Counted from the first letter of the stretch, positions 14,281 through 62,620 are shown. The stretch is DNA of 64,000 nt from Chlamydiota bacterium (GCA_013289325.1 JABDAE010000002.1:1199-65198), one strand, 5' to 3'. Made by a program: numbers and translations. The notes: generated by a model not told the origin, from the letters alone.

Positions 14281-14443
14281 CCTAAATCCGGCAGTTGGAG
14301 ACGGCAACTTAACGCAATCTCTTGAACCAGAATCATTTGCAATGGGGTGGTCCTTCACCCTCTGGGAATGTCCCACCCCATTGCAAAGTGATTCTAATTC
14401 AAGATCTTGCATTAATTTGCCATCTCGAACTGCCGGATCTAGG
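14281..14443 (-). mobile_element. 163-bp palindromic MITE-like element, copy 1 (intergenic; TSD TTAAA)
   Basis: Runs cctaaatccggcag...ctgccggatctagg. The 5-mer ttaaa occurs at 14276-14280 and 14444-14448. The strand given is the one carrying the ETAVRD reading mode. Confidence 0.9.
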
Positions 14444-14501
14444 TTAAAAAAATTATGCAAGAGGTTCTTTAATAGCGCTTTGACTTAATTGATGATACGC
14501 C

Positions 14502-14942
14502 TTAATATTTTTGACAGTATTTTTTCACCCTACTCACAGTATCTAAGATCTTCGGGGTGTTTAAGAATACACTCTTATATATCTCTGAAAGGTCCTCCAA
14601 AAGATATTCATGAGCAATTGCATTTCTTGTTTCTCTAATTTTTGAAAAAATTTCAGCACTTTCTATAATCCCAAGCTTCTCTGCTCGATTGATACTATCT
14701 CGAACGGTCTCTTGCGGTTCATAATCGAGTTGGTTGATAAGTCGAAAAATTTTTCTTATGAGCAGATCGCTTAACCGTGCAAAACGACTGGTTAAAGCCT
14801 CTAAGTGTATGAGTTCTAAAAATGAGTACTCCTTTTTTAGTCCTATAGATTGACACTTCAAAAACGTTTCAGAGAGAACATCTGATGCATGGTTTAAAGC
14901 TTTAAGTTCCTTCATTAGGAGTTTTTTTTCATTCTCAGTCAC
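14502..14942 (-). CDS. hepT: HEPN-domain toxin (HepT/DUF86-like)
   Basis: Rx4H motif in ETRNAIAHEY. Overlaps the upstream nucleotidyltransferase gene by 4 nt. Confidence 0.8.
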   Translation of the reverse strand: MTENEKKLLMKELKALNHASDVLSETFLKCQSIGLKKEYSFLELIHLEALTSRFARLSDLLIRKIFRLINQLDYEPQETVRDSINRAEKLGIIESAEIFSKIRETRNAIAHEYLLEDLSEIYKSVFLNTPKILDTVSRVKKYCQKY

Positions 14943-15302: not shown

Positions 15303-16283
15303 TTAAAACACCCAGCCTATATTGACAGCAGCGCCAACATCGTTTCTTGTTTGCTTGCCAAATAAGTGTTGATAAAGAGGCACCTGTATCCCTCCTTGTA
15401 TAAAGAAACGCTTGATCGTCGCAAACGTTAAAGAAGGGGTGACATAGATGACATTGCCACCTGAATTGTGATCTGTCTTTCCATCGATCCGATTTCTATC
15501 TGCCAAGGTCCCACTTCCTTCAATGAGCCAGCTAAGGTACCAATCGTCACTGCTTACAATCATCCTTCCAATACCCCCTTGATAAAGAAATTGGCTTCCA
15601 AATCTTGTGCCTTGATTAGAGCCGTTCCATATCCCCCCTGTAGAGGCAAAGTAATACCAATCAAATGTCATGCGATTATAGGTAAATCCAAGAAAGCAGC
15701 TGCATTGTCCATCTCCTGTTGGTGGGCTTTTCTTGGTAGAACCCGTTGGGAATGTCACATTAGCCACAACGCTTGCCTCATCGGAGCTGTCTTTTTTATT
15801 TTTTGTATAAAAGCCATACTCGACCTGAAGAAGTAAGTCTTGTATGCCGCTGCTATGGTCTTCACCTTGGCGGAGTTTCACGGCATCGGGCGCTGCAAAA
15901 AATAGGGAAAAGGTATCGGTCACCCCATACACAAAAGTGGGATTGATAATAGCTGCGTATTGTTTATGTCCTTTGATATAGCTTCCGACTAAAATTGCCT
16001 GCAGCTGCCCTTTGTCGACAAAATTTTGGCCAAAAGCAATAAGAGGGCCTGGCTGCTGGGAAGTGGGAAAGGCTAAAAACCCAATTTTTAAAGGCTCATC
16101 ATCTTTCTTTTCTTCTTGATCTTTCTTATCTTCCTCTTTTTTGGAATCACTTGAGTCTATTGAACCGTCCTTTTGACATTTGTCCCCATCCTCAATAGCC
16201 TCAAGATTAAAATGTTGCCAAGCAAAAAAAGTTGTCAAAAAAACAAGTGCTCGTACATATTTGGCAGGTAAATGCATTGTCAT
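15303..16283 (-). CDS. Putative outer-membrane beta-barrel protein
   Basis: Signal-like N-terminus and an acidic/Lys low-complexity linker. Alternating beta-strand pattern. C-terminal ...NIGWVF with terminal Phe. The specific family is not resolved. Confidence 0.45.
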   Translation of the reverse strand: MTMHLPAKYVRALVFLTTFFAWQHFNLEAIEDGDKCQKDGSIDSSDSKKEEDKKDQEEKKDDEPLKIGFLAFPTSQQPGPLIAFGQNFVDKGQLQAILVGSYIKGHKQYAAIINPTFVYGVTDTFSLFFAAPDAVKLRQGEDHSSGIQDLLLQVEYGFYTKNKKDSSDEASVVANVTFPTGSTKKSPPTGDGQCSCFLGFTYNRMTFDWYYFASTGGIWNGSNQGTRFGSQFLYQGGIGRMIVSSDDWYLSWLIEGSGTLADRNRIDGKTDHNSGGNVIYVTPSLTFATIKRFFIQGGIQVPLYQHLFGKQTRNDVGAAVNIGWVF

Positions 16284-17506
16284 TGACCTTTTTTTGTAAC
16301 AATAGAAGTCACTGTTTTATCGTTTCCACCCATGCTGATCAACATCCCAAATTCAGATTTCATGGCCACTTGATTGGATGCAACGCCAATTGATTGATGA
16401 AGAAGATCGACGAGTTGACGCACGCCTGTCGCCCCCGTCGGATGGCCAAAGCCGATTAATCCCCCAGATAAATTGGTCGGGATTTTGCCTTGCGCCCTAG
16501 TATTTCCCTCGATGATAAACTCTGCAGCTTTTCCTTTTTCTGCAAATCCTATCGCCTCAAGAGAAAGAAGCGCTGTAATCGTAAAGCAATCGTGCACCTC
16601 TAAAAGTGCAAGATCATCTTTTGTGATCTTAGCCTCTTGCAAGGCCTTTTGGACTGCATTTGCGGTATTTGAAAGCGATGATGTATCTAATGGGCCTTGC
16701 GTTATATCTGATTCTGATTCCCCAATTCCGACAATTTCAACAGCGTCCTTTAATGGAATGCCGCAAGCACTTAAGCCGTCTATTGAGGCGATAATTAATG
16801 AGGCGGCCCCATCGGAAACTTTTGAGCAATCAAAATGGTTGAGATGGGAAACAAATGTATAAGGATTTGGCGGCGTCATTCCAACTGCAAAAAGATCTGC
16901 TTTTTTATTCTCAAACTCTTGCGCTTTTGGATTTTTCCGCGCATTGAGAATGGCCTGCTCGTACCACTTGGCCATGGCAATTCTTGCATTTTTTTCCCCA
17001 TAGCGCTCAAAATAAGCCTTTGCGCGCTCCGAAAATATACTTGGAAAAAGGTGGGCTGCTCCCTTTTTTCTTTCCCCTGCATAATACGCAGCTCCTGCCA
17101 AGACATCTGCCCCATAGATTGGCTTCAAGGTATTTTGCATCTCAAATCCCGCGACAAAGACAGCGTCGGCGCATTCGGCTAACACACTTTTAACAGCGGT
17201 TGTAATGGCCTTTCCCCCGGTTCCGCACGCCCCTTCAACTCCTATACAAGACTTTCCTTCTAACTCTTTCACCATAAATGGCAAAAAGCCTGGCAAATTT
17301 GCCTGATTGATAAACCTGGCAGACATAAAACTGCCGATGACACCCTCATCAATTGCGTTTGTTTTTAGATGTGATAAGGTCCCTTTAGCCGTTTCTTTTA
17401 AATACTCTTCAAAAGATCGATTGGGCCCTTTCACATTAAATTCACTTCTACCAGGCCCAGAGAATATGGTTGTATTCCCGGCTGCCGCATAAACTTTCTT
17501 ACGCAT
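16280..17506 (-). CDS. Thiolase-like protein (SCP-x / acetyl-CoA acetyltransferase family)
   Basis: 408 aa. GVEGACGTGG active-site Cys region. C-terminal GLIGFGHPTGATG thiolase signature. Confidence 0.75.
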   Translation of the reverse strand: MRKKVYAAAGNTTIFSGPGRSEFNVKGPNRSFEEYLKETAKGTLSHLKTNAIDEGVIGSFMSARFINQANLPGFLPFMVKELEGKSCIGVEGACGTGGKAITTAVKSVLAECADAVFVAGFEMQNTLKPIYGADVLAGAAYYAGERKKGAAHLFPSIFSERAKAYFERYGEKNARIAMAKWYEQAILNARKNPKAQEFENKKADLFAVGMTPPNPYTFVSHLNHFDCSKVSDGAASLIIASIDGLSACGIPLKDAVEIVGIGESESDITQGPLDTSSLSNTANAVQKALQEAKITKDDLALLEVHDCFTITALLSLEAIGFAEKGKAAEFIIEGNTRAQGKIPTNLSGGLIGFGHPTGATGVRQLVDLLHQSIGVASNQVAMKSEFGMLISMGGNDKTVTSIVTKKGQ

Positions 17507-23242: not shown

Positions 23243-25504
23243 ATGTTCGAACTTTCAGTTGCTTTTAAATACCTTATTCCGAGGTGGAAGCAACTTTCTG
23301 TTTCAATTATCAGTTTGGTGTCTATTTTAATCATCGCGCTCGTCGTCTGGCTCATTGTCGTCTTTTTCTCTGTGAAAGATGGCCTTGAAAATAGTTGGGT
23401 AGATAAGATTATCGCCTTAACTGCCCCCATTCGCATGACTCCCACTCATAAGTACTATACTTCCTATTACTACCTTGTCGATGGAATTAGTGAAAGCTCT
23501 AACTATGCGTTGAAGTCCATTGGCGAAAAGCTGCAAAGCAAACACGGCAAAGATCCCTACAATCCTGAAGTCGATGAAGAGATTCCAAAAGAGTGGAGCG
23601 CTAAAGATAGTCAGACGGATGGGGAACTAAAAGATCTCGTCCAAGAGGCTAAAAAAATCATTTTAGCGACCCCTTCTGCTAAAAATCCAGTTGTAAGTCC
23701 ATTTGAAACGACGATGGCAAATGTAAGGCTTCGCTTGCTAAGGCATGTAGATGGCAACAAAGAGCACTCTCAACAGTTTCTCGATCAGGTGGCCTATATC
23801 GGCACCTTCGATAGTGAAAGTAAAACACTTGCCAAGGCGCTTCTTCCCCCAACATCTGCTGACTATCTTAACCTCATACAAATGCAGGCCGTGCTCTCTG
23901 ACAATCTCATTGAAGACAATCCGGACGGCTTTCACCGGGTTGAACCAAATGAGCTTAAACAACGACTTTCAGACCTATTTCAATCAATCGATATCCAATC
24001 CTTAACTCTTCCTCCTCAAGGATGGCGCATTCTGCCCTCTTACTTACCCAAAGGGGCCTCTTTAAAAGTTGCCATCATTGCTAATCGAATTATCCTAGAA
24101 ACGGCAGTTCGAGATGCTAAATTGGCGCAAGATCTTGAATTAGAATCACTTTGCAATGGGGTGGGACATTCCCAAATGGTGAAGGACCACCCCATTGCAA
24201 ATGATTCTGGTTCAAGAGATTGTGTCAAGTTAGCGTCTCCAACTGCCGTTTCTAGGATTATCATCCCACAAAATGCTAAAGACCTTAAAGGCGTTCTTGA
24301 TCAACTCAACAAAAATGTAAAAACGCCTATCGCTATCGAAGGGATTTTACATGTAGAAGAAAACTTAAAGCTTTTAACTCTTGAAAATAAAGAAATTCCC
24401 CTCTTGCCATCGGCAGAATTTATTTTAAAGTCGATTACCCCCTTTAATGCCATTATCGATAAAGACTCTTTTCTACATGCAAGTAGACCACAAGACATTG
24501 CCTTTCAGCTTAAGGACCAAATTCAAGGATATGCCTTTAATGCAACGGCTTCACTTCGCAAATTTGGTATAGGCAAGGTAGTGACTTTAAATGCCACATC
24601 CCTCAAGTTTCTTGCAGAGTCAAGTCATGGAACATCCCTTAATCTCCCAGAAAACCATGGCTTTGGAGAGTCTATCTTACTTCCCAAAGGATTTAAAGAT
24701 GCCGGCGTCTTGATTGGCGATCTCGGTTATATTGCCTACCACTCCCTTACTCCAAGCAGTGTGCAAGAGATGCGCGTACCCGTTTCAGTCGTTGGGTTTT
24801 ATGACCCGGGGATCATGCCAATTGGGGGCAAATACATCTTAGCCTTAAAAGATTTAGTCTCTATGGTAGGAGGAGCGGCCTTAAGCGAGCAGGTGCCCTT
24901 ATCAAGTGGTCTTAACATCCGCTTTGATAATAGCAAAGACGCTAAAAAAATTAAAAAAGAGCTGCAAGATGCCTTTGAAAAGGTGGGGATCTTAAACTAT
25001 TGGAATATTCAAACCTATCAAGAGTATGAATTTTCAAAAGATCTCATCGAGCAGCTGCAAAGCGAGAAAAATCTCTTTAGCGTCATTTCTCTTGTGATCA
25101 TCATCGTTGCCTGCTCCAATATCATCTCAATGCTCTTTATCCTGGTCAACGATAAAAAACTTGAAATCGGCATCTTGCGCTCTATGGGAGCCTCCTCCAA
25201 AAGCATTGCGATCATCTTTGGATTTTGCGGCATGGTAATGGGGGGAATCGGTAGTCTAATCGGCATTTTTGCCTCCGTTCTCACATTGCATTATCTAAAC
25301 GACCTTGTCGCCTTCATTGGCAAAATGCAAGGGCACGATCTCTTTAACCCGATGTTTTACGGCTCGACACTGCCAAGCGAATTAAGCCTTGAGGCATTAG
25401 GCTTTGTCGTCATCACCACAGCTTTTATTTCTCTTATCGCAGGGGTCGTTCCGGCCACAAAGGCAAGCGCTATGCGCCCCTCTGCAATCCTAAAGGCAGA
25501 ATAA
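23243..25504 (+). CDS. LolC/E-like (FtsX/MacB-type) ABC transporter permease with enlarged periplasmic domain and an in-frame 163-bp element
   Basis: N-terminal TM helix. C-terminal FtsX domain (LVNDKKLEIGILRSMGASSKSI plus 3 TM helices). Followed by a LolD-like ATPase. 753 aa. Confidence 0.75.
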   Translation: MFELSVAFKYLIPRWKQLSVSIISLVSILIIALVVWLIVVFFSVKDGLENSWVDKIIALTAPIRMTPTHKYYTSYYYLVDGISESSNYALKSIGEKLQSKHGKDPYNPEVDEEIPKEWSAKDSQTDGELKDLVQEAKKIILATPSAKNPVVSPFETTMANVRLRLLRHVDGNKEHSQQFLDQVAYIGTFDSESKTLAKALLPPTSADYLNLIQMQAVLSDNLIEDNPDGFHRVEPNELKQRLSDLFQSIDIQSLTLPPQGWRILPSYLPKGASLKVAIIANRIILETAVRDAKLAQDLELESLCNGVGHSQMVKDHPIANDSGSRDCVKLASPTAVSRIIIPQNAKDLKGVLDQLNKNVKTPIAIEGILHVEENLKLLTLENKEIPLLPSAEFILKSITPFNAIIDKDSFLHASRPQDIAFQLKDQIQGYAFNATASLRKFGIGKVVTLNATSLKFLAESSHGTSLNLPENHGFGESILLPKGFKDAGVLIGDLGYIAYHSLTPSSVQEMRVPVSVVGFYDPGIMPIGGKYILALKDLVSMVGGAALSEQVPLSSGLNIRFDNSKDAKKIKKELQDAFEKVGILNYWNIQTYQEYEFSKDLIEQLQSEKNLFSVISLVIIIVACSNIISMLFILVNDKKLEIGILRSMGASSKSIAIIFGFCGMVMGGIGSLIGIFASVLTLHYLNDLVAFIGKMQGHDLFNPMFYGSTLPSELSLEALGFVVITTAFISLIAGVVPATKASAMRPSAILKAE
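24094..24256 (+). mobile_element. 163-bp element, copy 2 (in frame inside LolC/E-like CDS; TSD ATTAT)
   Basis: attat occurs at 24089-24093 and 24257-24261. Read as LETAVRDAKLAQDLELESLCNGVGHSQMVKDHPIANDSGSRDCVKLASPTAVSR. Confidence 0.9.
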
Positions 25505-29073: not shown

Positions 29074-29152
29074 ATTATTCTCCCTCTACATAATAAGTGT
29101 AACATATGTACATTTATTAATCAAAAGTTTTACAAGAGGTCTATTATGGGAT

Positions 29153-34394: not shown

Positions 34395-34481
34395 TGGAAG
34401 AGGTGAGATTCGAACTCACGTCACCATTGCTAGTGAATCTGTTTTCGAGACAGACGCATTCGGCCACTCTGCCACTCTTCC
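34395..34481 (-). tRNA. tRNA-Ser (anticodon CGA), long variable arm, no encoded CCA
   Basis: Reverse complement: GGAAGAGTGGCAGAGTGGCCGAATGCGTCTGTCTCGAAAACAGATTCACTAGCAATGGTGACGTGAGTTCGAATCTCACCTCTTCCA. Acceptor GGAAGAG/CTCTTCC. Anticodon stem TCTGT/ACAGA with loop CTCGAAA. T-arm GTGAG-TTCGAAT-CTCAC. Confidence 0.85.
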
Positions 34482-42496: not shown

Positions 42497-42659
42497 CCTA
42501 GAAACGGCAGTTCGAGATGGCAAATTAATGCAAGATCTTGAATTAGAATCACTTTGCAATGGGGTGGGACATTCCCAAAGGGTGTTGGACCACCCCATTG
42601 CAAATGATTCTGGTTCAAGATCTTGCATTAATTTGCCATCTCGAACTGCCGGATTTAGG
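42497..42659. mobile_element. 163-bp element, copy 4 (intergenic, chimeric; outer ~29 bp of stem perfectly base-paired from position 16 inward; TSD ATAAT)
   Basis: ataat occurs at 42492-42496 and 42660-42664. Left arm ...ttcgagatggcaaattaatgcaagatcttgaa. Right arm ttcaagatcttgcattaatttgccatctcgaa... Confidence 0.9.
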
Positions 42660-44623: not shown

Positions 44624-47600
44624 ATGCCTATCTCTCAACTGAACGCTGTCGTTGCAGGCACTATACCGCTTTTACCTATTCATCATAGCTATTTCCTCGA
44701 CCCTACAGAACAATCCTCTACATTGAAATCTACTCTCAAAGCTGCACTGATCGGCAGTGCAACGTTGGTTGGAGGCGCAATTGGTATTTATTATGCCAGT
44801 AGATTTTTTGGTAGTAGTAATGCAATCGCCGTGCAAAAAGTGGAAAAACTAGACATAGACATTTCCCTTCCACATAACATACAAAGCAGAGCATTACCTA
44901 TATTGCAGATGGATTTGATTAAGGATCGGGTGATGGACATTAATAAAGGTGAAAAATTCAGTCTCCAGGTTGATGGCAAACAATATTGTCAAGACGCATA
45001 CCTTGTTTCTTATTCTTCACCAAACCCCTTTCCCCCTTGGGTGGCTTTCTCTTTCCCAATTTCTACTTTTTATATACCGGGCCCCCCATCTGGCATCTCT
45101 ATTAAGGGTAATTTTGCTTTTGTCGCCGCTAGAAATGCGGGTCTTCAAATTGTTGATATCTCCAATATCTATAAACCTATTCTTATTAGTAATTTTTCTA
45201 CTTCCGGTTCTGCGCGGGGGGTTAGCGTTTTTGGCAATTTAGCGTTCGTTGCAGCTGATGATCAGGGAGTGCAGGTTGTCAATATCGAAACTGTATCTAA
45301 GCCTTATTTTGCTGGTAAGTTTTCCTTTTCTCCTTCAGCAAGGGGGGTTTGTGTGGCTGGCAATTTTGCCTTTATAGCCGCTTTTGAGAAGGGACTTCTA
45401 ATTGTGAACATCTCGAATATATCTCAGCCATATCTTGTGAGTAGCTACCCTTCTGTGATTGCTCTAGGTGTCTACGTTGTTGGAAATCTGGCTTATGCGG
45501 GAGATTATACCGGAGTGAAAATCATCAATATTGCGAACATATCCAACCCGACTCTTGCGGGTCAAATTCTTACTAGTGGTTATATAAACAATGACTTTGT
45601 TATAAATAATTTTGCTTATCTTGTCGGAGCCAGTGGACTTCAAATTTTTAATCTTTCTGATAAAAACAACCCATATCTTGCTGCTAAGCTTTCTATCCAA
45701 GGGATTGCCCTAGGAGTTGCTGTCATCAATAATTTCGCAATTGTTGCTGCTAGAGAGGCTGGGCTGCAAATTATCAATCTCAGTCAACTCGCTATTTCCG
45801 CTTTTAGCACTAAAATTGACCAATCTATTATTAATCTTAATATTGTATGTTCTAACAAAATATACTCTGATTCTTTTTTACTTTCTTTTTCAAAACCACC
45901 ACAAAAAAAAACGACTTCTCTCACTGATTTATCTATGATGCCCTTTGCAGATCTTTCCTTCTATTTTAAAGGAGATTCTTTTTTCACTAGCGCCATCACC
46001 CCGTTTTTATCTCTAAGTGCCTCCTTGACTAATGGTCTCCCGCTTCCTTCTTGGATTCGATTTTCAATAAAACCTCAACGAATCTCTACCTTTAATCTCG
46101 TCGCATTTGCAAACAATATGGTAAAGATTGAAAACACTTTATTTATTGCAGCCTCTGGTCAAGGATTTCTTATTATTGACGTTACAAACCCTGAAAATCC
46201 AAATAAAATTGGAAGTATTTTAACAACAAATACACAAGACATTGCAATTGTGAATAACACAGCTTTTGTAGCAAGTGACGCACCAACAGCCCAATTTAAT
46301 TGGCCTGGTTTGCGAATTGTTAATATCTCTAATAAAGCTCTCCCAACTATTTTAGGAGCGTATCCAATAGCAGGAGGAGCATTTGGTGTAGCTGTATTCA
46401 ATGATACAGCATACGTAATAGATCATGTAATTGGCTTACAAATTCTTAACGTTAAGAATAAAACCAATCCTTCTTTCATCGGGAGTTGTAAAATACCTGG
46501 AATAGGACTTGGACTCTCTGGAACAGCTCTTTTTACTAGAGTTTATTTAATTAATAACGTTGTCTTTACGACTGATTCAAGCAACAATTTTTACACCATT
46601 GACGTTAGTAATAAATCAAACCCGTTTTTAATTCAAAATACCACGCTCCCACCCTACTCAAAAAAAGCATCCGGTGCTTCATTTCAGGACAATATGGTCT
46701 TTATCCCTTATCAAGACCAAGGATTACTTATTTTTGATACTAGTAACGAAACCAACCCCTTGTTACTTGGTTTGTTTCCAACAAATTATCGAATACACTC
46801 CTCGGCCGTTTCAGGTAAGTTTGCCTACCTGGGCAGTAGCATTGTTGATATCATCGATCTAGACAATTGGGCATTTACCGGTCAACCCACACCCGCCGAT
46901 GCTGGTAATTACCCCATCAAACTCACTGCAAAAGACTCCATCGGCAACACTGCCTTTGACTCATTCACTATCCGAGTCGAAGGCCCACCCTTCCGACAAC
47001 ACCCTTTGCCTGATGTATTTATCAAAACTAGAGTCTCATTCACCTATTTTGTCAATGAGGATACTTTCAAAGATCCAAATAACGATCCTTTAACCTACAG
47101 CGCATCTTTAGCAAATGGTAACCACCTGCTTCCCGAATGGCTATCTTTTAATCCAGTGGCACAGGCTTTTTTAGGGACTCCTGAAAAACCAGATGCTGGC
47201 ACTTTAAATATTATCGTCTCTGCAAAGGATGCACTTTTTCCACCTATCCAAGCACCATTTAACCTACACATTATCCACGAAAATAAAGCCCCGATTCTGC
47301 TCAACCAAATTCCTACCCAAATTGCTTTCGTCAATCAACCCTTTGCCTACTCTGTTCCAACCAATACTTTTTTTGACGAGGACAACGATCCTTTAAGCTA
47401 TACCACCTCCTTACTCCCTAACTGGCTTACATTCAATCAAGCCACCTTTAAAGGGACCCCGCTCGTCCAAGATGCGAATTTATATGCTACCCGCCAACTC
47501 GAAATCACATTCATCGCAAGTGATGGACAATACACCGCCTCGTCTAGTTTTGGCATTGCTATCAACGGCAGGCCTCCTCAAGTGTTAAATCAAATTTCTT

Positions 47601-48472
47601 CGCAAATTGCCCGAGTGAATCAACCCTTTAATTTCGTTGCCCCCTCCACTACTTTTAACGATATCGACGGAAAATTCACCTATTCCGCTTCATATAGTGA
47701 TGGGCAGCCGCTCACAAATTGGTTAACATTTGATCCAGTAAGTCGTGCGTTCAAAGGCACCCCCGGACCCGGTGACACCGACGTCTACACCGATCGACGC
47801 CTCGAAATTTCTCTAAAAGCAAATGACGGAACAAACTCTGCGACAACTAATTTTGTCATTGCCGTCAATGGAAAATCCTATGTCGAATGGGGCGTGACCA
47901 TTGGAGCGCCGCTGCTCAGTGCTGCCACAACAATTTACGCCCTTTATCGAAAACGTGCCTATCTTTTGAATCACTGGAATGAGAAAAAATATACAAAGAC
48001 ATCACAAACCTTGGCTGTTGGCGAAGAGTTTTCTTATATTTTTTCCTGTAACCATCGAAGTATCCGCAAAGTTGTTGTAAAGGGGCTTTATCAAGAACAC
48101 TGGTTTGGCACAAAGATATTCAATGCCTTAGATAGATCTTTGCTTTGCTGTAGACGCGATATGAAAGAATGGATACCCGTACCAAACGACATTCCGTCTT
48201 GGTTAAAATTTAATGCCAACTCGGGCACGATTAGTTCCCAAAACGGCGGACCTGAAGAGATGGATATAGGGTTGATTCGCGTTCAAGCTATTGGTAATGA
48301 CGAAGTGATTTTAGAGCAGTTTGATATTGAGGTGGTCGAAATAGCAGCTCCAAATCCTGTATTTTCGGCAGAAAGTCAGGCATTTGCTACAGCAGACCAG
48401 AGTGTATCGGAAGGGTATTGGGAGCCAACGGATTTGGGAGCAGGAGTTGTCGCTATGAGGAATTTGGTGTAA
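44624..48472 (+). CDS. Giant surface protein: 12 LVIVD repeats (two beta-propellers), cadherin-like (CADG/He_PIG) domains, a TM helix and a tail
   Basis: GLQIVDISN, GVQVVNIET, GLLIVNISN, GVKIINIAN, GLQIFNLSD, GLQIINLSQ, then GFLIIDVTN, GLRIVNISN, GLQILNVKN, FYTIDVSN, GLLIFDTSN and IVDIIDLDN. Three NDPL(T/S)Y...WL(S/T)F(N/D) cadherin-like units. TM helix WGVTIGAPLLSAATTIYALY followed by RKR. Confidence 0.7.
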   Translation: MPISQLNAVVAGTIPLLPIHHSYFLDPTEQSSTLKSTLKAALIGSATLVGGAIGIYYASRFFGSSNAIAVQKVEKLDIDISLPHNIQSRALPILQMDLIKDRVMDINKGEKFSLQVDGKQYCQDAYLVSYSSPNPFPPWVAFSFPISTFYIPGPPSGISIKGNFAFVAARNAGLQIVDISNIYKPILISNFSTSGSARGVSVFGNLAFVAADDQGVQVVNIETVSKPYFAGKFSFSPSARGVCVAGNFAFIAAFEKGLLIVNISNISQPYLVSSYPSVIALGVYVVGNLAYAGDYTGVKIINIANISNPTLAGQILTSGYINNDFVINNFAYLVGASGLQIFNLSDKNNPYLAAKLSIQGIALGVAVINNFAIVAAREAGLQIINLSQLAISAFSTKIDQSIINLNIVCSNKIYSDSFLLSFSKPPQKKTTSLTDLSMMPFADLSFYFKGDSFFTSAITPFLSLSASLTNGLPLPSWIRFSIKPQRISTFNLVAFANNMVKIENTLFIAASGQGFLIIDVTNPENPNKIGSILTTNTQDIAIVNNTAFVASDAPTAQFNWPGLRIVNISNKALPTILGAYPIAGGAFGVAVFNDTAYVIDHVIGLQILNVKNKTNPSFIGSCKIPGIGLGLSGTALFTRVYLINNVVFTTDSSNNFYTIDVSNKSNPFLIQNTTLPPYSKKASGASFQDNMVFIPYQDQGLLIFDTSNETNPLLLGLFPTNYRIHSSAVSGKFAYLGSSIVDIIDLDNWAFTGQPTPADAGNYPIKLTAKDSIGNTAFDSFTIRVEGPPFRQHPLPDVFIKTRVSFTYFVNEDTFKDPNNDPLTYSASLANGNHLLPEWLSFNPVAQAFLGTPEKPDAGTLNIIVSAKDALFPPIQAPFNLHIIHENKAPILLNQIPTQIAFVNQPFAYSVPTNTFFDEDNDPLSYTTSLLPNWLTFNQATFKGTPLVQDANLYATRQLEITFIASDGQYTASSSFGIAINGRPPQVLNQISSQIARVNQPFNFVAPSTTFNDIDGKFTYSASYSDGQPLTNWLTFDPVSRAFKGTPGPGDTDVYTDRRLEISLKANDGTNSATTNFVIAVNGKSYVEWGVTIGAPLLSAATTIYALYRKRAYLLNHWNEKKYTKTSQTLAVGEEFSYIFSCNHRSIRKVVVKGLYQEHWFGTKIFNALDRSLLCCRRDMKEWIPVPNDIPSWLKFNANSGTISSQNGGPEEMDIGLIRVQAIGNDEVILEQFDIEVVEIAAPNPVFSAESQAFATADQSVSEGYWEPTDLGAGVVAMRNLV

Positions 48473-48481: not shown

Positions 48482-51400
48482 CTATTCAAGAAGATGTCTA
48501 ATATACGCTTTGTCCTCAAAAGCCCTGCTATATAGCTCTTGCACGACCCTTTTTCGTCTTGAGGGAGCATTCAATAAAGCGACGACATTTGGGTACTTAT
48601 CTGCTTCCACTAAACGCGCAATGGCAAGGCAGACACCTCGGCTTGCAGGTGCAAATGCTTGCAATTCAAGAAGCCATCGCACCAGATTTTCATCTCCTCC
48701 AATTGCCGCATTTCGCAAGATAAAGAGATGATGGAGATAAGGAATACGGGAATTATTTGAATAATACAAACTCACAACTGAATATACCCCATGAAGCGCT
48801 CCTCTTTTTGCTAAATCATACTGCAAATCCCCTTTGCAGCTAGAAAGGGAAGTCAGATAAATGACAATGTCTTGATAACCTCTTACGGCAGCTGCTTGTG
48901 CAGCTTTTTCTAGCGCGCTATCGGATATGCCTATTTCCGAAATATTTAACCATTTCCTTTGCTCGGCAAAGTGGAGAATGACAGATAGCTTGTTGCGGCA
49001 CGCGGCCACATAAATGGCAAGCGTTCGCCATTTGTCTACCCCATCAGAAGTTATTTCTGCGCCCCAATTGACTAAGAGATCAAGAGATTCTAATGGAACT
49101 TGCGGCTCTTTTATCGCGATCTCAATGGCTTTAGCAATGGCTTCATCCCTTTTATCGTCTGAAAACAGATCTGAGGCAAGAAGAGCCTGTACTGCATGGA
49201 CCTTATTTACCTGAGTAGCACTGTTTAAGCAGCCTTGAAGCTCTTTTTGAGTGATATCAGGACCGCCTTTATGAAGAATTTCTTCTGTAAGAGACGAGGC
49301 TACATGGATATGTCCATTGCTTAAGGCAAGGAGACGATATTTGTTTAACCTAGAAACGGCAGTTGCAGACACTAACTTGACACAATCTATTGAACCAGAA
49401 TCATTTGCAGTGGGGCGGTCCAACACCCTTTGGGAATGTCCCGCCTCACGGCAAAGTGATTCTAATTCAAGATCTTGTGCTAATTTTGCATCTGGAACTG
49501 CCGTTTTTAGGTTTAACCCATCGGCTTGCATGAAACTAAACAGTTTTTGTAAAGTCAAGATCAGCCCTTCTTTTGCACATACTTCCATGACAAAATCCAA
49601 ATAGTCATTTTGCAGATTTCTATCTATCTTATATTTGCCGGCATCTATTAATACCTCTATCGCACTTATCTGTTGATTTGCTCCAGCTTCTTCTATCGCC
49701 TTTTTTAAATCATCCAAGGTAAGCCATAAGGTAAGTACTCCTTGTAAGAGCGAGATATCTCCTGTTTTAGCGGCAAGACAAAGCAGCTCTTGAGGTGTTG
49801 ATTTAACAAAAGAGATCAAACGTTGTAGTGTTTTAGGATATTTCCCTTTTAATGCGAGGAAAATGAGCGTTTGTCCATCGAGGTGGCTCTTAAATTTCTT
49901 TAAGATAATATCGAGAATTGCCATCTCTTGGTCTGTAGGTACTTCAAGAGTTATGATCCTCTCAAGCTCTGATTGACAGTGTGAAAGAGATAAGACGTAC
50001 TCGGCTAATATAGCGCAAATGGCTGCTCTGTTGTTTGCAGCATCGTTGTTTACAGTATCTAAGAGAGTCCAAAGAAACTCTAACGACGGAAAGCATCCAC
50101 TAAATACTTCAGTAATGAGTGCGTATTTTGCAAGCTGCTTTGCAATAGTGATAAATTCGATATAATTTTCGACTTCTCTTTGCTTTTGATCGACATTTAG
50201 ACTGATGGCCTCTTTGGGATGCAAGAGGTCATTAAGTAGACGATTATTGCCTATCTTAACGCAAGAATACAGGGCCATTTTCACGTTCTCATTTGAAAGA
50301 CATTGTGGGAGTATTTTAAAAGTGGTTTTTTTCGATATAGCACCTATATAAGCATCCCAATCCTTACTTACGAGATTTCTTCCCTCTATAAGGGCTTCAA
50401 AACACCAAAAAGAGTTTTCTTCAATTGAAAGAAAAGTAGCCGTATCAAGGCAGTCCTCTGAAAGCTTTTTGTGTCTTCTAATGAATCCTATCGATACAAA
50501 ATCTCTTTTTATGACAAGCTCTTGCAAAAGTTTTTCTAAATCCTCTATAGAGAATAAAAGGGTGATATCGCGTAAAGTATTTTTGTTTACGCTCTCATCG
50601 CTTGTCAAAATCTCTGCCCACTTCTCCATGGAAGGGGGACAGCATTTAAATACCATAAGCTGCAACTCTTGAGGTTTACCTGCATACTTTAGCACAATTT
50701 GGTTCCAAATCGCCGCAGTTAGAGGAAATTTTTGCAAAAAGCGAGTAAGCATATCAAAGGCTTCTTTTTCAAGCGCCGCATCAACGACAAGCCAATGCCC
50801 TTCTGCAGTGAGTTGAATCTCACTTTCTAAAACGAGCTCCAATACATCAACAGATTGCGTCTCCATCAAATGGCAAAGAAGTGCTTGATCATCCTCATTA
50901 ATTGGCTTTTTCATCCCCTTTTTCATGTCTTGAAAAAGAAGCTCTTTAAGTATTATTGGGCATCTGGAATCAATTGCGACTTTTTTGGCTAAAGTGCTTT
51001 CCAAATGAGGCAACAGTTGGGATAGCCATTGGGTTAACTGTTTGTCTGTCCTCTCTTTTTCTGCTAGAGTAAAAATCTCTCCTAAAATCATTTCAGCTTT
51101 GGGATTTTTTCCTATTTGAGCAGCGAAAACATAAAAAATATGATGCAGCTTAGCATCTTTAATAGTGAGGCTCATCATTTTATGTATCGCCTCATGAGAG
51201 GGAGGCCGCATTGTAAAGGCAACGCTTGTGGTCTTTAAATCGCAGCCGAGCTGAACAATTGTGAAAAAATCTTGATCGATGTTTGCCTTGTCGCTTTCTT
51301 TATAAAAGGGATACCGCAGCAAAGCTAAAAGAAAATCATGGTTTACACCATGATCGCTTGCTACTTGCAAAAGGTCATCTTGCGTTTCCTTTGTTTGAGG

Positions 51401-51880
51401 TGTCTTGCAATGGTCAAGAACCTTTAAAATGTTGTCAAAACGCCTTGCCCTAATTGCCAATGCAATCTTTTCTTTGATGGGATTGTAAAAGTGAGTTTTC
51501 CCATTGATATTACCAATTAGCCCTGGTGCTCCCCTTAAAGAGGTAATTTTGTATTGGCAAATAGGGCAATCAAAAGCGATATTTTCGCCACCTGTAGTAA
51601 TGCCGGCAAGCTCTTTTGCGCATTTTTTATGCATACCATGAAGGATCGCACGCTGGATTGCATCATGACCATGCCCAGACATCAATTGTTTTTTTGTTTT
51701 GTCAGAATCGGAAGGTTTTACATGGACAAGAATCGCACTATCTTTAACCCCAGCTCTCATCTCTTTGCGGCACACTGGGCAATCCCCAAGACTGCCGACT
51801 GCATTAGTCACAAGGAACATTTCTGCAGGATTTCTATCAATTATTAAAGGTGTTAAAGGTGTACCAACAGCACTGCTCAT
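48482..51880 (-). CDS. Eukaryote-like RING-type zinc-finger plus ankyrin-like repeat protein (candidate effector) with an in-frame 163-bp element
   Basis: N-terminal CPVC-x33-HGH-x11-HKKC-x17-CPIC cross-brace-like pattern. C-terminal helical repeats of the type AAVRGYQDIVIYL and AAIGGDENLVRWLLE. 1132 aa. Confidence 0.5.
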   Translation of the reverse strand: MSSAVGTPLTPLIIDRNPAEMFLVTNAVGSLGDCPVCRKEMRAGVKDSAILVHVKPSDSDKTKKQLMSGHGHDAIQRAILHGMHKKCAKELAGITTGGENIAFDCPICQYKITSLRGAPGLIGNINGKTHFYNPIKEKIALAIRARRFDNILKVLDHCKTPQTKETQDDLLQVASDHGVNHDFLLALLRYPFYKESDKANIDQDFFTIVQLGCDLKTTSVAFTMRPPSHEAIHKMMSLTIKDAKLHHIFYVFAAQIGKNPKAEMILGEIFTLAEKERTDKQLTQWLSQLLPHLESTLAKKVAIDSRCPIILKELLFQDMKKGMKKPINEDDQALLCHLMETQSVDVLELVLESEIQLTAEGHWLVVDAALEKEAFDMLTRFLQKFPLTAAIWNQIVLKYAGKPQELQLMVFKCCPPSMEKWAEILTSDESVNKNTLRDITLLFSIEDLEKLLQELVIKRDFVSIGFIRRHKKLSEDCLDTATFLSIEENSFWCFEALIEGRNLVSKDWDAYIGAISKKTTFKILPQCLSNENVKMALYSCVKIGNNRLLNDLLHPKEAISLNVDQKQREVENYIEFITIAKQLAKYALITEVFSGCFPSLEFLWTLLDTVNNDAANNRAAICAILAEYVLSLSHCQSELERIITLEVPTDQEMAILDIILKKFKSHLDGQTLIFLALKGKYPKTLQRLISFVKSTPQELLCLAAKTGDISLLQGVLTLWLTLDDLKKAIEEAGANQQISAIEVLIDAGKYKIDRNLQNDYLDFVMEVCAKEGLILTLQKLFSFMQADGLNLKTAVPDAKLAQDLELESLCREAGHSQRVLDRPTANDSGSIDCVKLVSATAVSRLNKYRLLALSNGHIHVASSLTEEILHKGGPDITQKELQGCLNSATQVNKVHAVQALLASDLFSDDKRDEAIAKAIEIAIKEPQVPLESLDLLVNWGAEITSDGVDKWRTLAIYVAACRNKLSVILHFAEQRKWLNISEIGISDSALEKAAQAAAVRGYQDIVIYLTSLSSCKGDLQYDLAKRGALHGVYSVVSLYYSNNSRIPYLHHLFILRNAAIGGDENLVRWLLELQAFAPASRGVCLAIARLVEADKYPNVVALLNAPSRRKRVVQELYSRAFEDKAYIRHLLE
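49349..49511 (-). mobile_element. 163-bp element, copy 5 (in frame inside RING/ankyrin CDS; TSD TTTAA on plus strand)
   Basis: tttaa occurs at 49344-49348 and 49512-49516. Read on the minus strand as LKTAVPDAKLAQDLELESLCREAGHSQRVLDRPTANDSGSIDCVKLVSATAVSR. Confidence 0.9.
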
Positions 51881-52631: not shown

Positions 52632-53669
52632 ATGAACCTAACAACAGCAAATATTCCGATGAAAACTGTGGGTCCGATTAAAATCATCGGGCATCAAGTT
52701 TGCGATCTTGTGCAAGTGCCCCTTGCCACGTATGAATCACCCGTTTGGCCATCAGTTGCAAGAGGCGCTAAAGTGTCGATGCAAGCGGGTGGGATCTTTG
52801 CAATCGCCCTTTCCCAACAAATGACGCGCTCGATCATTTTAGCCGGAAAAGATGCCTTAATTGCTGCAGCGCATAGCCAAAAAATTCAAAGCGATGAAGA
52901 AACCATAAAGGCAGTGATCAAAACGACAAGTCGCTTTGCCAACTTAAAATCGATGCATATCGAACAAGTGGGCCCGCTGCTTTATATCAGAATTTCCATT
53001 ACATCAGGCGATGCCTCTGGACACAACATGGTCACAAAGGCAGCGGATGCCGTTATTTCTTATTTGCTAGAAAAGCATGAAGCACTTGAATATGTCTCCC
53101 TTTCAGGCAATTACTGCACAGATAAAAAAGCCTCTGCCGTCAATGGGATTTTAGGAAGAGGAATTTCCGTTGTGGCAGACATCAAGATCGATCGACACAT
53201 TTGCGCCTCAATACTTAGAACAACTCCTGAAAAGATTGTGGACCTCAACATCAAAAAAAATTTCATCGGCTCATCGCTTGCGGGAAGCATTCGCTCATCG
53301 AATGCGCACTTTGCCAATATTTTACTCGCTATCTATCTTGCCACGGGGCAAGACGCTGCCAATATCATTGAAGGATCGCAAGGAATAACCTTTGCCGAAA
53401 TGCAAGAAGATGACCTCTACTTTTCAGTTAGCCTTCCCAATATCATCTTAGGTGCTGTCGGCAGTGGAAAAGATCTTGGATTTACCCACGATAATTTAAC
53501 TGAATTGGGATGTACGGGAGAAAAAGAGGCAGGCACTCATGCCAGACGCCTTGCGATCATCACAGCTGCCGCAGTGCTTTGCGGAGAGCTATCACTACTT
53601 GCTGCGCTCACTAATCCAAAAGAGCTGATGCGCAGCCACCAACTCATCGAAAGAAAGCAAAAAGGATAA
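52632..53669 (+). CDS. hmgr: HMG-CoA reductase, class I type, short bacterial form
   Basis: VPLATYESPVWPSVARGAK, DASGHNMVTK, SGNYCTDKKASAVNGILGRG (class-I signature) and LMRSHQL with the catalytic His region. Confidence 0.85.
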   Translation: MNLTTANIPMKTVGPIKIIGHQVCDLVQVPLATYESPVWPSVARGAKVSMQAGGIFAIALSQQMTRSIILAGKDALIAAAHSQKIQSDEETIKAVIKTTSRFANLKSMHIEQVGPLLYIRISITSGDASGHNMVTKAADAVISYLLEKHEALEYVSLSGNYCTDKKASAVNGILGRGISVVADIKIDRHICASILRTTPEKIVDLNIKKNFIGSSLAGSIRSSNAHFANILLAIYLATGQDAANIIEGSQGITFAEMQEDDLYFSVSLPNIILGAVGSGKDLGFTHDNLTELGCTGEKEAGTHARRLAIITAAAVLCGELSLLAALTNPKELMRSHQLIERKQKG

Positions 53670-57826: not shown

Positions 57827-57942
57827 GTTGTTAGTCATAAAATACCTCGATCTTTTTGGATATTGTTCTCATTTTTTTGTTCTTGAAAGAGGAGAGTATG
57901 CTGAAAACTTTAATTACGCAAGAGGTCTATTATAAAAAAAAT

Positions 57943-59736: not shown

Positions 59737-60860
59737 CGTTAACGACAAAACAAGAAAGAGTCTCAAATATTACTATCTACCCTTCATTGTTACAAGATTT
59801 CAACTGCCTAAAAGACGCGCTCTCATCGCTTGATAAATCAAAACCAATTGCCATCATCACAGATTCCAACGTCGAAAAACTCTACGGAAGATCTTTGCAA
59901 GAAAATTTACTTTCTTTGAATTTTAAGACCCATATATTTCACTTTCCAGCAGGAGAAACGAGTAAAACAAGGGCCACAAAAGAAAGCATCGAAAATCAGA
60001 TGCTAGAAAATGGCCTTACGGCAGATCTTTATATCTTTGCACTTGGGGGCGGCGTTGTCACAGACATTGCGGGCTATATCGCCGCAACTTTTTGCCGGGG
60101 TGTCCCTTTAATTGCGATTCCCACATCTTTGACCGGCATGATCGATGCCTCCATAGGCGGCAAGAACGGGATCAGTGTGCCGCAAGGAAAAAACTTAATC
60201 GGCACCATCTATCAACCTAAAATGATCTTAATCGATTTATCGCTCCTTAACACCCTTTCAAAAAAAGAGCTGCGAAATGGGGCCATAGAAATGGTCAAGC
60301 ACGGCCTCGTGGCAGATCGCGCCCACTTTGACTACCTTGAAACTCATGCAGATCAAATCCTTGCATTAACCCCATCGACACTTAAAAAAGCTGTTTATGA
60401 TAGCTGCCAAATCAAGGTAAAAATCGTAGAAAGCGATGAAATAGGTGTTGGGCAAAGGCATCTTCTCAATTTTGGCCATACAATCGGACATGCATTAGAA
60501 AAACTAACCCATTACACAATGTCGCATGGAGAGGCCGTTGCCATCGGTATCCTTGTCGAAAGTTATTTAGCGTGTCTTTTAAACTACCTAAAACCCTCTT
60601 GTTTTGAAAGAATTAAAGCCATTTTTAACAAATATCAACTTCCCCTCTCTCTTCCCTACAAAATTCCAATCGACGAAATGTTAAACGCCATGGCGCTTGA
60701 TAAAAAGACGTTAAATGGAGAAAGGCGCTTTGTAATCCTTCAAGACATTGGCCATGCCAGCTCCTTTGAAGGCAAATTTTGTACCCCTGTCGACTTATCT
60801 CTTATAAAAAATGCCCTATCGTGGATGAATAGTGATATTACATTCGGCTATTTAAGATGA
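59727..60860 (+). CDS. aroB: 3-dehydroquinate synthase
   Basis: ALGGGVVTDIAGYIAATFCRGVPLIAIPTSL, NFGHTIGHALE and HGEAVAIG motifs. Confidence 0.9.
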   Translation: MELTLTTKQERVSNITIYPSLLQDFNCLKDALSSLDKSKPIAIITDSNVEKLYGRSLQENLLSLNFKTHIFHFPAGETSKTRATKESIENQMLENGLTADLYIFALGGGVVTDIAGYIAATFCRGVPLIAIPTSLTGMIDASIGGKNGISVPQGKNLIGTIYQPKMILIDLSLLNTLSKKELRNGAIEMVKHGLVADRAHFDYLETHADQILALTPSTLKKAVYDSCQIKVKIVESDEIGVGQRHLLNFGHTIGHALEKLTHYTMSHGEAVAIGILVESYLACLLNYLKPSCFERIKAIFNKYQLPLSLPYKIPIDEMLNAMALDKKTLNGERRFVILQDIGHASSFEGKFCTPVDLSLIKNALSWMNSDITFGYLR

Positions 60861-62620
60861 TTTGCGCCGTCATTAAGGTAGAAAATTACTTAAGTGCCTA
60901 TCAAGAGATTCGTGAGGCAGCCTTAACAGCTGAGATGATTGAGCTTAGACTCGACTATCTTCTTCATCTCGACTTTTCAGAAATTAAGCGCTTAAGAGAA
61001 GAGTGCAAGGTGGCCGTCATCATCACTTTGCGAAGCAATAAAGAAGGGGGACATTATAAAGGATCTGAAAAGACAAGACTTAAAATGCTATTAAAGCTTG
61101 CTGCTTTAAATCCCGATTATCTAGACATCGAACACCATGTATCAAAGCCATTCATTAAGGCAATTGCAAATAAACACCCCACAATTGGCATCATCATCTC
61201 CTATCACAATTTTACAAATATGCCAAAGAATCTAAACAAAATCTATAAGGCTTTGCAAAGACATAAAGCACATTATTACAAAATTGCCGCCACAGCAAAA
61301 TCATCTCTTGATGCGCTAAGGCTTCTTTGTTTTTCCAAATCTAAAAATCCAAATCTCATTGCAGTTAGCATGGGATCAATTGGACAATTTGGCCGCATCA
61401 TCGCTCATCATATGGGATCTCCCATCACCTACGCTATCCTCAGTGAAGAAAAAAAGACAGCTCCTGGACAGCTTACGATAGAGGAGCTGACCAAGCAGTA
61501 TCGCTACAGCTCTTTTAATAGCATATATGCTTTAATCGGAGATCCAATAGATTTAAGCATAAGCCACATCACCCATAATCAAACATTTGAAAAATTAGGG
61601 CTCTTTGCAGTCTATATTAAAATTGCCCTAAAAGAAAATGAGATAAAGACATTTTTAACATATGTCAAAAAACTCCCTTTCAAAGGCTTAAGCGTGACAA
61701 TGCCTTTAAAAGAGGCTATCATCCCCTATTTAGATGAGATCGATGACGAGGCAAAAGCGATTGGCGCAATCAACACGCTTGTCATTCAAAATCACAAAAT
61801 CATCGGATTTAATACAGATGGAAAAGGGGCTCTTGATGCCATCCAGCAATCCTTTAACCTAGAAACGGCAGTTCGAGACGCTAAATTGGCGCAAGATCTT
61901 GAATTAGAATCACTTTGCAGTGGGGCGGGACATTCCCAAGTGGCGAAGGACCGCCTCACTGCAAATGATTCTGGTTCAAGAGATTGTGTCAAGTTAGCGT
62001 CTCCAACTGACGTTTTTAGGTTTAATACTTCAAGTACCCTAAACAAGCGCATACTCGTATTAGGCGGCGGAGGAGCTGCTAAGGCGATCATGTATGAAGC
62101 AAAAAAAAGAGGCGCTGTTGTTTATACGATGTTGCGCGATCCCCTTAAAGCAAAAGAGCTGCAAAGCAAATACGGCTATGCAGCTTTCGCATTTAACCTA
62201 GAAACGGCAGTTCGAGATGGCAAATTAATGCAAGATCTTGAATTAGAATCACTTTGCAATGGGGTGGGACATTCCCAAATGGTGAAGGACCACCCCATTG
62301 CAAATGATTCTGGTTCAAGAGATTGCGTTAAGTTGCCGTCTCCAACTGCCGTTTCTAGGTTTAATGACCCCAATATAGACATTGTCGTCAATTGCACGCC
62401 GGTAGATTTTGAAGAATTTGCGCCTCAAATGCAAACAGCAATCGATGCGATGATTGAAAATAAAGCCCTTTTCATGGACATTAAAACGAAACCAAAAGAC
62501 TCAATTCTTCTGACAAAAGCCAAAACAAATGGCTGCCCTATTGTCTATGGCCATCAGATGTTTGCATTGCAGGCGGCGCTGCAATTTAAACTTTGGACTA
62601 AGAGTTCAACTACTCCGTGA
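60857..62620 (+). CDS. aroDE: Bifunctional 3-dehydroquinate dehydratase (type I) / shikimate dehydrogenase, carrying two in-frame 163-bp elements
   Basis: N-terminal AroD-like half (MIELRLDYL...YHNF). C-terminal AroE motifs SVTMPLK, NTDGKG, VLGGGGAAKAI and VNCTPV. 587 aa = 475 + 2x56. Confidence 0.9.
   Translation: MICAVIKVENYLSAYQEIREAALTAEMIELRLDYLLHLDFSEIKRLREECKVAVIITLRSNKEGGHYKGSEKTRLKMLLKLAALNPDYLDIEHHVSKPFIKAIANKHPTIGIIISYHNFTNMPKNLNKIYKALQRHKAHYYKIAATAKSSLDALRLLCFSKSKNPNLIAVSMGSIGQFGRIIAHHMGSPITYAILSEEKKTAPGQLTIEELTKQYRYSSFNSIYALIGDPIDLSISHITHNQTFEKLGLFAVYIKIALKENEIKTFLTYVKKLPFKGLSVTMPLKEAIIPYLDEIDDEAKAIGAINTLVIQNHKIIGFNTDGKGALDAIQQSFNLETAVRDAKLAQDLELESLCSGAGHSQVAKDRLTANDSGSRDCVKLASPTDVFRFNTSSTLNKRILVLGGGGAAKAIMYEAKKRGAVVYTMLRDPLKAKELQSKYGYAAFAFNLETAVRDGKLMQDLELESLCNGVGHSQMVKDHPIANDSGSRDCVKLPSPTAVSRFNDPNIDIVVNCTPVDFEEFAPQMQTAIDAMIENKALFMDIKTKPKDSILLTKAKTNGCPIVYGHQMFALQAALQFKLWTKSSTTP
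61858..62020 (+). mobile_element. 163-bp element, copy 6 (in frame in AroE domain; TSD TTTAA)
   Basis: tttaa occurs at 61853-61857 and 62021-62025. Confidence 0.9.
62197..62359 (+). mobile_element. 163-bp element, copy 7 (in frame in AroE domain; TSD TTTAA)
   Basis: tttaa occurs at 62192-62196 and 62360-62364. Confidence 0.9.

Follow-up and report, generated by a model that had tools for sequence, protein, structure and literature searches.

A 163-bp palindromic repeat lying in frame in unrelated genes of a chlamydia-like bacterium, very probably a miniature transposon derived from an IS1380-type insertion sequence

The question raised by the locus described here is how one and the same palindromic sequence of 163 bp can lie repeatedly between and inside the genes of a bacterium, and be read through in the frame of unrelated proteins. 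The locus is a stretch of 64,000 nucleotides from a Chlamydiota bacterium (GCA_013289325.1, JABDAE010000002.1:1199-65198), with a GC content of 42%; this whole stretch is referred to as the window, and all positions are counted from its first letter. A preliminary description of this DNA had read the repeat as similar to a MITE (miniature inverted-repeat transposable element), tolerated as an in-frame insertion and comparable with the Rickettsia palindromic elements (RPEs). The results reported here support that description, and the explanation that we favour, and consider highly probable, is that the repeat is a MITE, i.e., a non-autonomous transposon, derived from the left end of an insertion sequence (IS) of the IS1380 type.

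Seven full copies of the repeat are present in the window, each exactly 163 bp long and each bordered at both flanks by a perfect, non-extendable direct repeat of 5 bp, in agreement with the preliminary description. In coordinate order, they are found at 14281-14443 (minus strand; TTAAA at 14276-14280 and 14444-14448), 24094-24256 (plus; ATTAT), 34620-34782 (minus; ATCAT), 42497-42659 (plus; ATAAT), 49349-49511 (minus; TTTAA), 61858-62020 (plus; TTTAA), and 62197-62359 (plus; TTTAA), and each will be named below by its first position. A conserved 18-mer of the element occurs seven times in the window, against 0.14 occurrences expected by chance, and the DNA identity between copies located in unrelated genes and in intergenic DNA is 86-96%. 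Several properties that characterize MITEs are seen: a length of 163 bp, i.e., less than about 500 bp, no transposase gene, terminal inverted repeats, a constant 5-bp target-site duplication (TSD), and multiple dispersed copies, namely seven full and one partial in 64 kb. The inverted ends read CCTAGAAACGGCAGTT... and ...AACTGCCGTTTCTAGG, and the termini occur in two forms only, CCTARAAACGG and CCTARATCCGG, with AA or TC at positions 7-8. The inner end CTGCCG, previously given for every copy, has to be corrected for copy 61858, which ends CTGACG. The copies are mosaics of two sub-families, between which the differences come in pairs, with a change in each arm.

Three of the full copies lie outside genes. 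Copy 14281 is placed between a HepT-like open reading frame (ORF) at 14502-14942 and an M48 peptidase ORF at 13217-14197, both on the minus strand, and carries the ATCC/GGAT terminal variant at both ends. Copy 34620 is intergenic as well, 139 nt from a tRNA-Ser(CGA) gene (34395-34481, minus strand), and copy 42497 is found between the convergent aroA gene (plus strand) and an NlpC/P60 ORF (42702-43211, minus strand). The latter copy has a different terminal variant at each end and is a chimera, its right arm having been converted so that it complements the left arm almost exactly (89% over arms of 63 nt); an independent Logan assembly contig (L002) stops 23 nt inside it. Moreover, it is nested in a decayed remnant. 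A search of the window with a profile built from 13 copies returned no eighth full copy and only one decayed partial copy, restricted to the left arm, at about 42452-42494 (plus strand), whose local alignment score of 45 compares with a maximum of 30 among 2917 control windows. The gene for 5-enolpyruvylshikimate-3-phosphate synthase, aroA (41172-42479), owes its stop codon and the nine codons before it (KETAVRDGK) to this partial copy, within which copy 42497 lies.

Outside the window, a peptide search detected small ORFs reading through a copy on at least 26 further contigs, apparently from the same draft genome. The search returned small ORFs only, and long host proteins were missed although P0032 is in the database, so that it is unfit as a census of copies. 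In three cases from other contigs of what is apparently the same draft genome (P0001, P0002, and P0023), the called small ORFs run from one copy into a second one, which points to tandem or nested insertions elsewhere in the genome.

The answer to how such a sequence can be read in frame begins with its length and its frames. An element of 163 bp plus one 5-bp duplication amounts to 168 bp, or 56 codons, the palindrome is nearly full length, and frame 2 is stop-free both ways, so that one genic insertion in three is harmless to the frame of its host gene. Frame 2 is indeed open from end to end on both strands of all seven copies, as had been stated, and frames 1 and 3 are closed; the accompanying statement that their first stop always falls within 27 nt did not hold, since the stop of frame 1 is found at codon 9 or codon 15, depending on the copy. 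The four remaining copies, 24094, 49349, 61858, and 62197, occupy long ORFs of 753, 1132, and 587 amino acids, all start in codon phase 2, and are all read through in the mode that begins LETAVRD, again as first described. The strand with this reading will be called the A strand, and its complement the B strand.

The host genes are diverse. Copy 24094 resides in a gene for an FtsX-like permease (23243-25504, plus strand), copy 49349 in a gene for an ankyrin-repeat protein with paired Cys motifs (48482-51880, minus strand), and copies 61858 and 62197 share an aroD-aroE fusion gene (60857-62620, plus strand). When each element is excised in silico together with one copy of its 5-mer, uninterrupted proteins result, with the permease going from 753 to 697 residues, the ankyrin-repeat protein from 1132 to 1076, and AroDE, which loses both elements, from 587 to 475. 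Similar cases occur elsewhere: on another contig, apparently of the same genome, a copy is found inside the leader peptide of a pseudopilin (P0025), and at a metagenome locus (L034) a diverged copy, whose TSD has already decayed, lies in frame in a truA-type pseudouridine synthase gene (PF01416).

Comparison with homologues indicates where the inserts were accepted. In the permease, copy 24094 accounts for 56 residues (approximately 284-339) of the large domain that separates the hydrophobic segment at the N terminus from the FtsX domain at the C terminus. In AroDE, the site of copy 61858 is just ahead of the Gly-rich loop that binds nicotinamide adenine dinucleotide phosphate (NADP), and that of copy 62197 is a variable loop of the Rossmann domain. 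The AroDE homologues are 470-540 residues long, the closest named ones being proteins from Parachlamydiaceae metagenome-assembled genomes with about 45% identity, and both 56-residue segments are absent in all 17 aligned orthologues (45-51% identity). Likewise, nine permease homologues of about 700 residues (43-48% identity) are without the segment, the sole exception being P0162, for which the aligner placed a stretch of four residues at the position of the insert; in addition, each of the best 150 HMMER matches to the permease is broken into at least two stretches. Nested copies exist as well.

The same peptide in several unrelated proteins could also bring to mind an ancient protein module, or a low-complexity insert, rather than mobile DNA. 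We give this idea next to no credence, and regard it as refuted, because the similarity is one of DNA and extends to intergenic copies, a 5-bp duplication accompanies every copy, the orthologues are without the segment, and the terminal sequences are common to transposase-encoding ISs, as detailed below; the alignments of AroDE and the permease therefore contradict the ancient-domain alternative that the preliminary description had raised. Furthermore, neither the peptide nor the 54-codon frames of the element gave a Pfam match.

Regarding selection on the inserted peptide, private substitutions are distributed as 11 nonsynonymous to 3 synonymous in the genic copies and as 9 to 1 in the intergenic ones, and for this reason the peptide looks neutral, with no purifying selection visible on its 56 residues, and not like a functional domain. 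The latter possibility was rejected on account of these ratios together with the orthologues lacking the segment. The inserts differ in age. Copy 49349 is the most diverged, with nine private substitutions and the weakest predicted hairpin (-82.7 kcal/mol), and both of its frame 2 readings are open, whereas two genic copies (24094 and 62197), as well as the related copy at metagenome locus L006, have no private substitution at all, which suggests recent transposition activity. From this activity we infer, in turn, that a live partner IS is present somewhere in the genome. At the level of the family, random substitution to the divergence of the copies at L027 and L034 (54 and 42 changes, respectively) leaves both frames open in only about 4-6% of trials. 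Both frames are open in L027 and L034, one is open in L031, and none is open in the two 164-bp copies of L036; the open frames of L027 and L034, set against the random expectation, indicate selection against stop codons within the element.

These data also bear on the possibility that the four host ORFs are inactivated genes, which look intact because the frame of the element that happened to be used has no stop, the inserts being damage that has not yet decayed. The neutral appearance of the peptide and the youth of two of the genic copies would fit such a view, and so would the fact that one enzyme carries two 56-residue inserts in its NADP-binding domain. An AlphaFold2 model of AroDE can be read both ways: residues 335-394 and 447-497, which comprise the inserts, have confidence values (predicted local distance difference test, pLDDT) below 50, i.e., no confident structure, but the host parts are above 90, with the flanking strands intact, so that the AroDE fold is kept in the model and both inserts appear as low-confidence loops. 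Against inactivation, the host parts are full length and conserve the invariant residues of their families, the remaining shikimate pathway genes aroA and aroC are intact nearby, and all four genic copies are found in the single permissive phase. Moreover, the host frames are still open in copy 49349, the oldest of the genic copies, and in the truA copy with its decayed TSD. On balance, inactivation appears quite improbable, and the host proteins presumably keep their function in spite of the inserts.

If the repeat is mobile DNA, the next question is what moves it, and here the ends of the element are informative. Members of the IS1380 family are approximately 1.6-2 kb long, with one ORF and ends that start with CC. 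This family was considered because the ends CCTAGA...TCTAGG and the AT-rich 5-bp duplication of the repeat resembled those of ISEcp1, an IS1380-family member with the left end CCTAGATTCTACGT and AT-rich direct repeats of 5 bp (PMC6061673). A metagenome scan with the terminal 21-mer of the element gave 50 loci, and the terminal 16-22 nt of the element proved identical to the ends of ISs of 1.63-1.69 kb from metagenomes and from a plasmid of Polaromonas. The full-length elements from the metagenomes (L009, L014, L039, L048, and L049) measure 1634-1689 bp and have identical 16-nt inverted ends and one ORF of 513-545 amino acids; two more (L012 and L015) belong to the same group and are interrupted by contig ends, and L049 displays a perfect TTGAA duplication. 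The ends in this group start with CCTAAA or CCTAGA, and the terminal sequence that would flank a transposase ORF of the L012 or L009 type is CCTARAWMCGGCAG. The two terminal forms mentioned above are both seen among the MITE copies of this genome and among full-length ISs of high-GC organisms. Among cultured organisms, the group is represented on a plasmid of Polaromonas sp. P1-6 (L053; CP087967.1, positions 336-1965) by a 1630-bp IS that has one long ORF and the flanks TTTAA and TTAAA, and whose ends read CCTATTTTCGGCAGTTAG and CCTAGAAACGGCAGTTAG.

The ORFs of these ISs match the Pfam family DDE_Tnp_1_4 (PF13701) with 78.8 bits, against a threshold of 34.7, and their best NCBIfam match is the IS1380 model NF033539, over the full model length and with an E value of 4e-40. 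By tblastn, they are 24-26% identical to annotated IS1380-family transposases over 72-81% of the query, and 44% identical to a gene of the Polaromonas plasmid annotated only as "transposase", which belongs to the 1630-bp IS. Judging from these matches, the proteins are apparently distant members of the IS1380 family. The target sites point in the same direction for MITEs and IS alike: across all 25 elements with matched duplications, i.e., the seven window copies and 18 others, one of which, L049, is a full IS and the rest MITEs, the 5-mer conforms to W-T-N-A-W, its second letter being T and its fourth A throughout, which extends to 18 further metagenome elements the perfect A/T-rich duplication first described for the window. 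The 163-bp element continues at either end as the ISs do at their left end (...GTTSGAGAYG), whereas the right ends of the ISs diverge past nucleotide 16; the search pattern had been built on the left end, which in part biases this comparison.

The 163-bp repeat is not the only small element with these ends. Sister MITE types in the metagenome loci range from 68 to 211 bp, among them a 151-bp type with the same 17-nt ends and 5-bp duplications at eight loci (L003, L010, L013, L016, L018, L022, L030, and L035) on contigs of about 57-65% GC, the interior of which is not palindromic and has no open frame; further types measure 139, 166, and 176 bp. It would seem that numerous MITE lineages, across several phyla, have arisen from this IS group. 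Among the loci of the scan, the palindromic 163-bp type was found only at those of low GC (L006, L027, L031, L034, L036, L038, and L052; L008 has a variant of 211 bp), and its related copies on other low-GC contigs are 70-80% identical, are of the same length, and in most cases still have the open frames. The constraint on length proposed in the preliminary description consequently applies to the low-GC sub-lineage and not across the sister types. The two copies of L036 (2308-2471 and 3261-3424, 164 bp each) are flanked by sequences that are reverse-complementary to one another, and so are to be regarded as part of an inverted duplication of larger size, or of an artefact of fold-back assembly, not as two independent insertions.

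What remains to be accounted for is the palindrome itself, which spans almost the whole element. The RNA of the A strand is predicted to fold as a single hairpin with 63-73 pairs and energies from -83 to -126 kcal/mol, with z-scores from -11 to -23. Compensatory double changes that keep the pair are seen at 19 of the 64 consensus pairs (13 copies), and the hairpin is therefore maintained; homogenisation of the arms at the DNA level, as in the chimeric copy 42497, could contribute. The two strands are not equivalent. On the A strand, G·T mismatches between the arms occupy 65 cells (17 columns), against 7 cells (6 columns) for A·C, and by predicted folding this strand is more stable than the B strand by 6-31 kcal/mol, typically 12-24. 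In all nine cases with a clear direction of transcription, namely the four genic copies, copy 14281, whose A strand is the minus strand and is co-oriented with both neighbouring genes, and the copies of L034, L006, L038, and L027, the A strand is the sense strand.

These observations invite the reading that the element is primarily a module acting at the RNA level, the sense hairpin serving as a ribonuclease III (RNase III) site, an mRNA-stability element, or a terminator-like element, and transposition serving as its means of spread; in the extreme form, it would be an intervening sequence removed from the transcript. The compensated pairs, the one-sided mismatches together with the greater stability of the same strand, and the consistent sense orientation all speak for it, and hairpins active at the RNA level are a classic feature of MITEs (PMC3184786). 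Several points speak against it, however. When only recent changes confined to one copy are counted, G·T mismatches are about as frequent as A·C ones, so that the asymmetry resides in the inherited master sequence; arm homogenisation of the DNA can also yield compensatory changes; and the orientation bias may reflect a better tolerance of the hydrophilic peptide of the A mode compared with the Trp/Phe/Cys-rich one of the B mode. Moreover, the 163-bp element has no match in Rfam, and the reading is built on sequence and predicted folds. It is best seen as a layer added to the MITE model, and not as a full alternative, and as an account of what the element primarily is, we find it unlikely. As to the asymmetries of strand and orientation, the candidate causes are a B-mode peptide that is hydrophobic and less well tolerated, selection for the sense RNA hairpin, and insertion that is itself biased in orientation. 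A narrower claim, that the palindrome is under selection as a sense-strand RNA hairpin, beyond mere tolerance, is hinted at by the mismatches on one strand, the nine co-oriented cases, and the 19 compensated pairs, and is in our opinion a very doubtful one.

Returning to the MITE model, the course of events can be pictured as follows. A DDE transposase supplied in trans would recognise the terminal inverted repeat of about 21 bp, CCTARAWMCGGCAGTTSGAGA, and would insert the element at W-T-N-A-W sites, duplicating those 5 bp. Owing to its palindromic body, the element would present nearly the same sequence in either orientation. Insertions into genes in the other two phases would hit a stop at once, either the TAG in CCTAG or one at codon 9-15, and would presumably be lost, and the survivors would be those in loops or variable regions, where they would add a hydrophilic, apparently unstructured, and neutrally evolving segment of 56 residues.

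Several points weigh against this picture. No transposase with these ends was found by tblastn in the window or in any low-GC locus, and all the full-length ISs recovered are on contigs of about 60% GC, and thus come from other phyla. The statement of the preliminary description that the window holds no transposase agrees with this, tblastn giving no IS1380-like match, and the autonomous partner with the same termini that it called for can be assigned to a family through the full-length ISs of other organisms, but was not found in the window or the low-GC loci; both the mobilisation in trans and the partner IS in this genome are thus to be taken as probable deductions. The IS transposases themselves score 138 and 128 bits, under the curated NCBIfam cut-off of 180 for IS1380. 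Additionally, the empty sites are known only at the protein level, from orthologues with 43-51% identity, and we infer from the sequence that the element is retained in the mRNA and that the insert is translated. Lastly, the G·T asymmetry and the co-orientation with transcription in nine of nine cases are not predicted by a transposon model, and a sense-strand hairpin of -108 to -126 kcal/mol in a coding region could hinder translation or attract RNase III.

Among known systems, the closest parallel is provided by the RPEs, palindromic repeats of about 105-150 bp with an open frame, found in frame in unrelated housekeeping genes (Ogata et al. 2000, 2002, via PMC10969869, PMC3184786), the tolerance of which is ascribed to positions compatible with the protein fold (PMC10969869, PMC3184786). 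The 163-bp element shares with them its palindromic nature, its open frame, and its in-frame presence in unrelated genes of a bacterium of the intracellular type. This is a likeness of design only, drawn from descriptions of RPEs, and the element is not filed as an RPE; its host is chlamydia-like, whereas those of the RPEs are Alphaproteobacteria. Clear terminal inverted repeats, a constant 5-bp W-T-N-A-W TSD, and termini common to a transposase-encoding IS group set it apart, and both of its orientations are stop-free, yet only one is seen in genes. To our knowledge, terminal inverted repeats, a constant TSD, and termini shared with an IS have not been established for RPEs. With the IS1380 family, e.g., ISEcp1, the likeness lies in the related full-length elements of 1.63-1.69 kb with a single DDE transposase ORF, in the CCTAGA/CCTAAA ends as compared with CCTAGATTCTACGT, and in the AT-rich 5-bp TSD; unlike those ISs, the 163-bp element has no transposase, and both its ends resemble the left end of the IS.

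The Correia/NEMIS, ERIC/IRU, BOX, and RUP repeats are similar in being small, with terminal inverted repeats, TSDs, a long RNA stem-loop, and occasional in-frame fusion to ORFs (PMC3184786, PMC10969869), and the extension of gene 3' ends that is reviewed for them has its counterpart here in the tail of aroA (42452-42479). These repeats are mainly intergenic, whereas four of the seven full copies described here are inside genes, and the length and frames of the element appear tuned for that. In-frame fusion of intragenic MITEs with host ORFs has been called "not unusual", with RPEs as the extreme case, and genes whose 3' ends are lengthened by repeats have been noted as well (PMC10969869, PMC3184786), so that the phenomenon is not new in kind. 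Notable here are the new phylum, the link to an IS1380-type transposon group, and the asymmetry of strand and orientation. Within an incomplete coverage of the literature, which makes for weak evidence, no such MITE or palindromic element was found described in Chlamydiae, nor any MITE derived from IS1380. IMU/ISSod9 had been considered as a known IS1380-derived MITE and was dropped, as ISSod9 appears only in papers on Tn3-derived elements, and the Cardinium MITE and the repeats of the Waddlia genome, considered as precedents, are unrelated repeats.

A few other features of the window deserve mention, some of them close to the copies. A 17-nt motif, TAGACMTCTTGCATAAT, occurs six times in the window with at most three mismatches, against 0.5 expected, mostly just past gene ends: 3710-3726 (plus), 14452-14468 (minus), 29127-29143 (minus), 42480-42496 (plus), 43039-43055 (plus), and 57913-57929 (minus); it is also present at 1328-1344 of L006. 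Copy 14281 is 8 nt away from one of these sites, and for copy 42497 and the copy of L006 the point of insertion is the ATAAT of such a site. The motif of L006 forms one arm of a 19-bp hairpin, with a tRNA gene apparently upstream of it. The motif may represent a promoter or a terminator, a hot spot for insertion, or what is left of an old element. On the B strand of sub-family I copies there is a promoter-like sequence, TTGACA-16-AATCAT, with 10 of 12 matches (61965-61992, minus strand, and at the same position in others), which, in genic copies, would fire antisense to the host gene.

Away from the copies, a thiamine pyrophosphate (TPP) riboswitch is detected at 44410-44516 (minus strand, 67 bits); it overlaps the 5' end of a mechanically listed ORF at 43208-44587 (minus strand), and the real start of this ORF is for that reason probably downstream of the aptamer. 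The 1282-residue ORF at 44624-48472, whose match to the choice-of-anchor B family is weak and under the cut-off, contains a 74-nt direct repeat at 47298-47371 and 47583-47656 (70% identity, 285-nt spacing), which points to internal repeats in the protein. The ORF at 52632-53669 has a strong, below-cut-off match to 3-hydroxy-3-methylglutaryl-coenzyme A (HMG-CoA) reductase, and the one at 16280-17506, beside another ORF at 15303-16283, resembles thiolases; together, the HMG-CoA reductase-like and thiolase-like ORFs are suggestive of a mevalonate pathway. The window also has a cytochrome b-like ORF (8553-9878) and an ORF of 1103 residues with c-type cytochrome domains (9884-13195), and the mevalonate-type and cytochrome ORFs are an unusual set for a chlamydia-like genome.

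The protein-coding palindromes of Rickettsia have long passed for an almost unique curiosity, with no known means of spread. The 163-bp element adds an independent, chlamydia-like case that comes with a mechanism, namely defined inverted ends, a 5-bp W-T-N-A-W TSD, and relatives with an IS1380-type transposase, and with it the spread of selfish in-frame palindromes, and their tolerance by proteins, become approachable by experiment. There are consequences for annotation too, as these elements create spurious small ORFs, add 56 residues to real proteins, and fragment assemblies at repeat boundaries. Finally, if the hairpin turned out to be selected as RNA, a mobile element would have installed the same structured RNA module of about 70 bp in and between dozens of genes of an intracellular bacterium, and these genes would share a point of post-transcriptional control or processing, such as cleavage by RNase III or, at the extreme, excision of the insert from the transcript.

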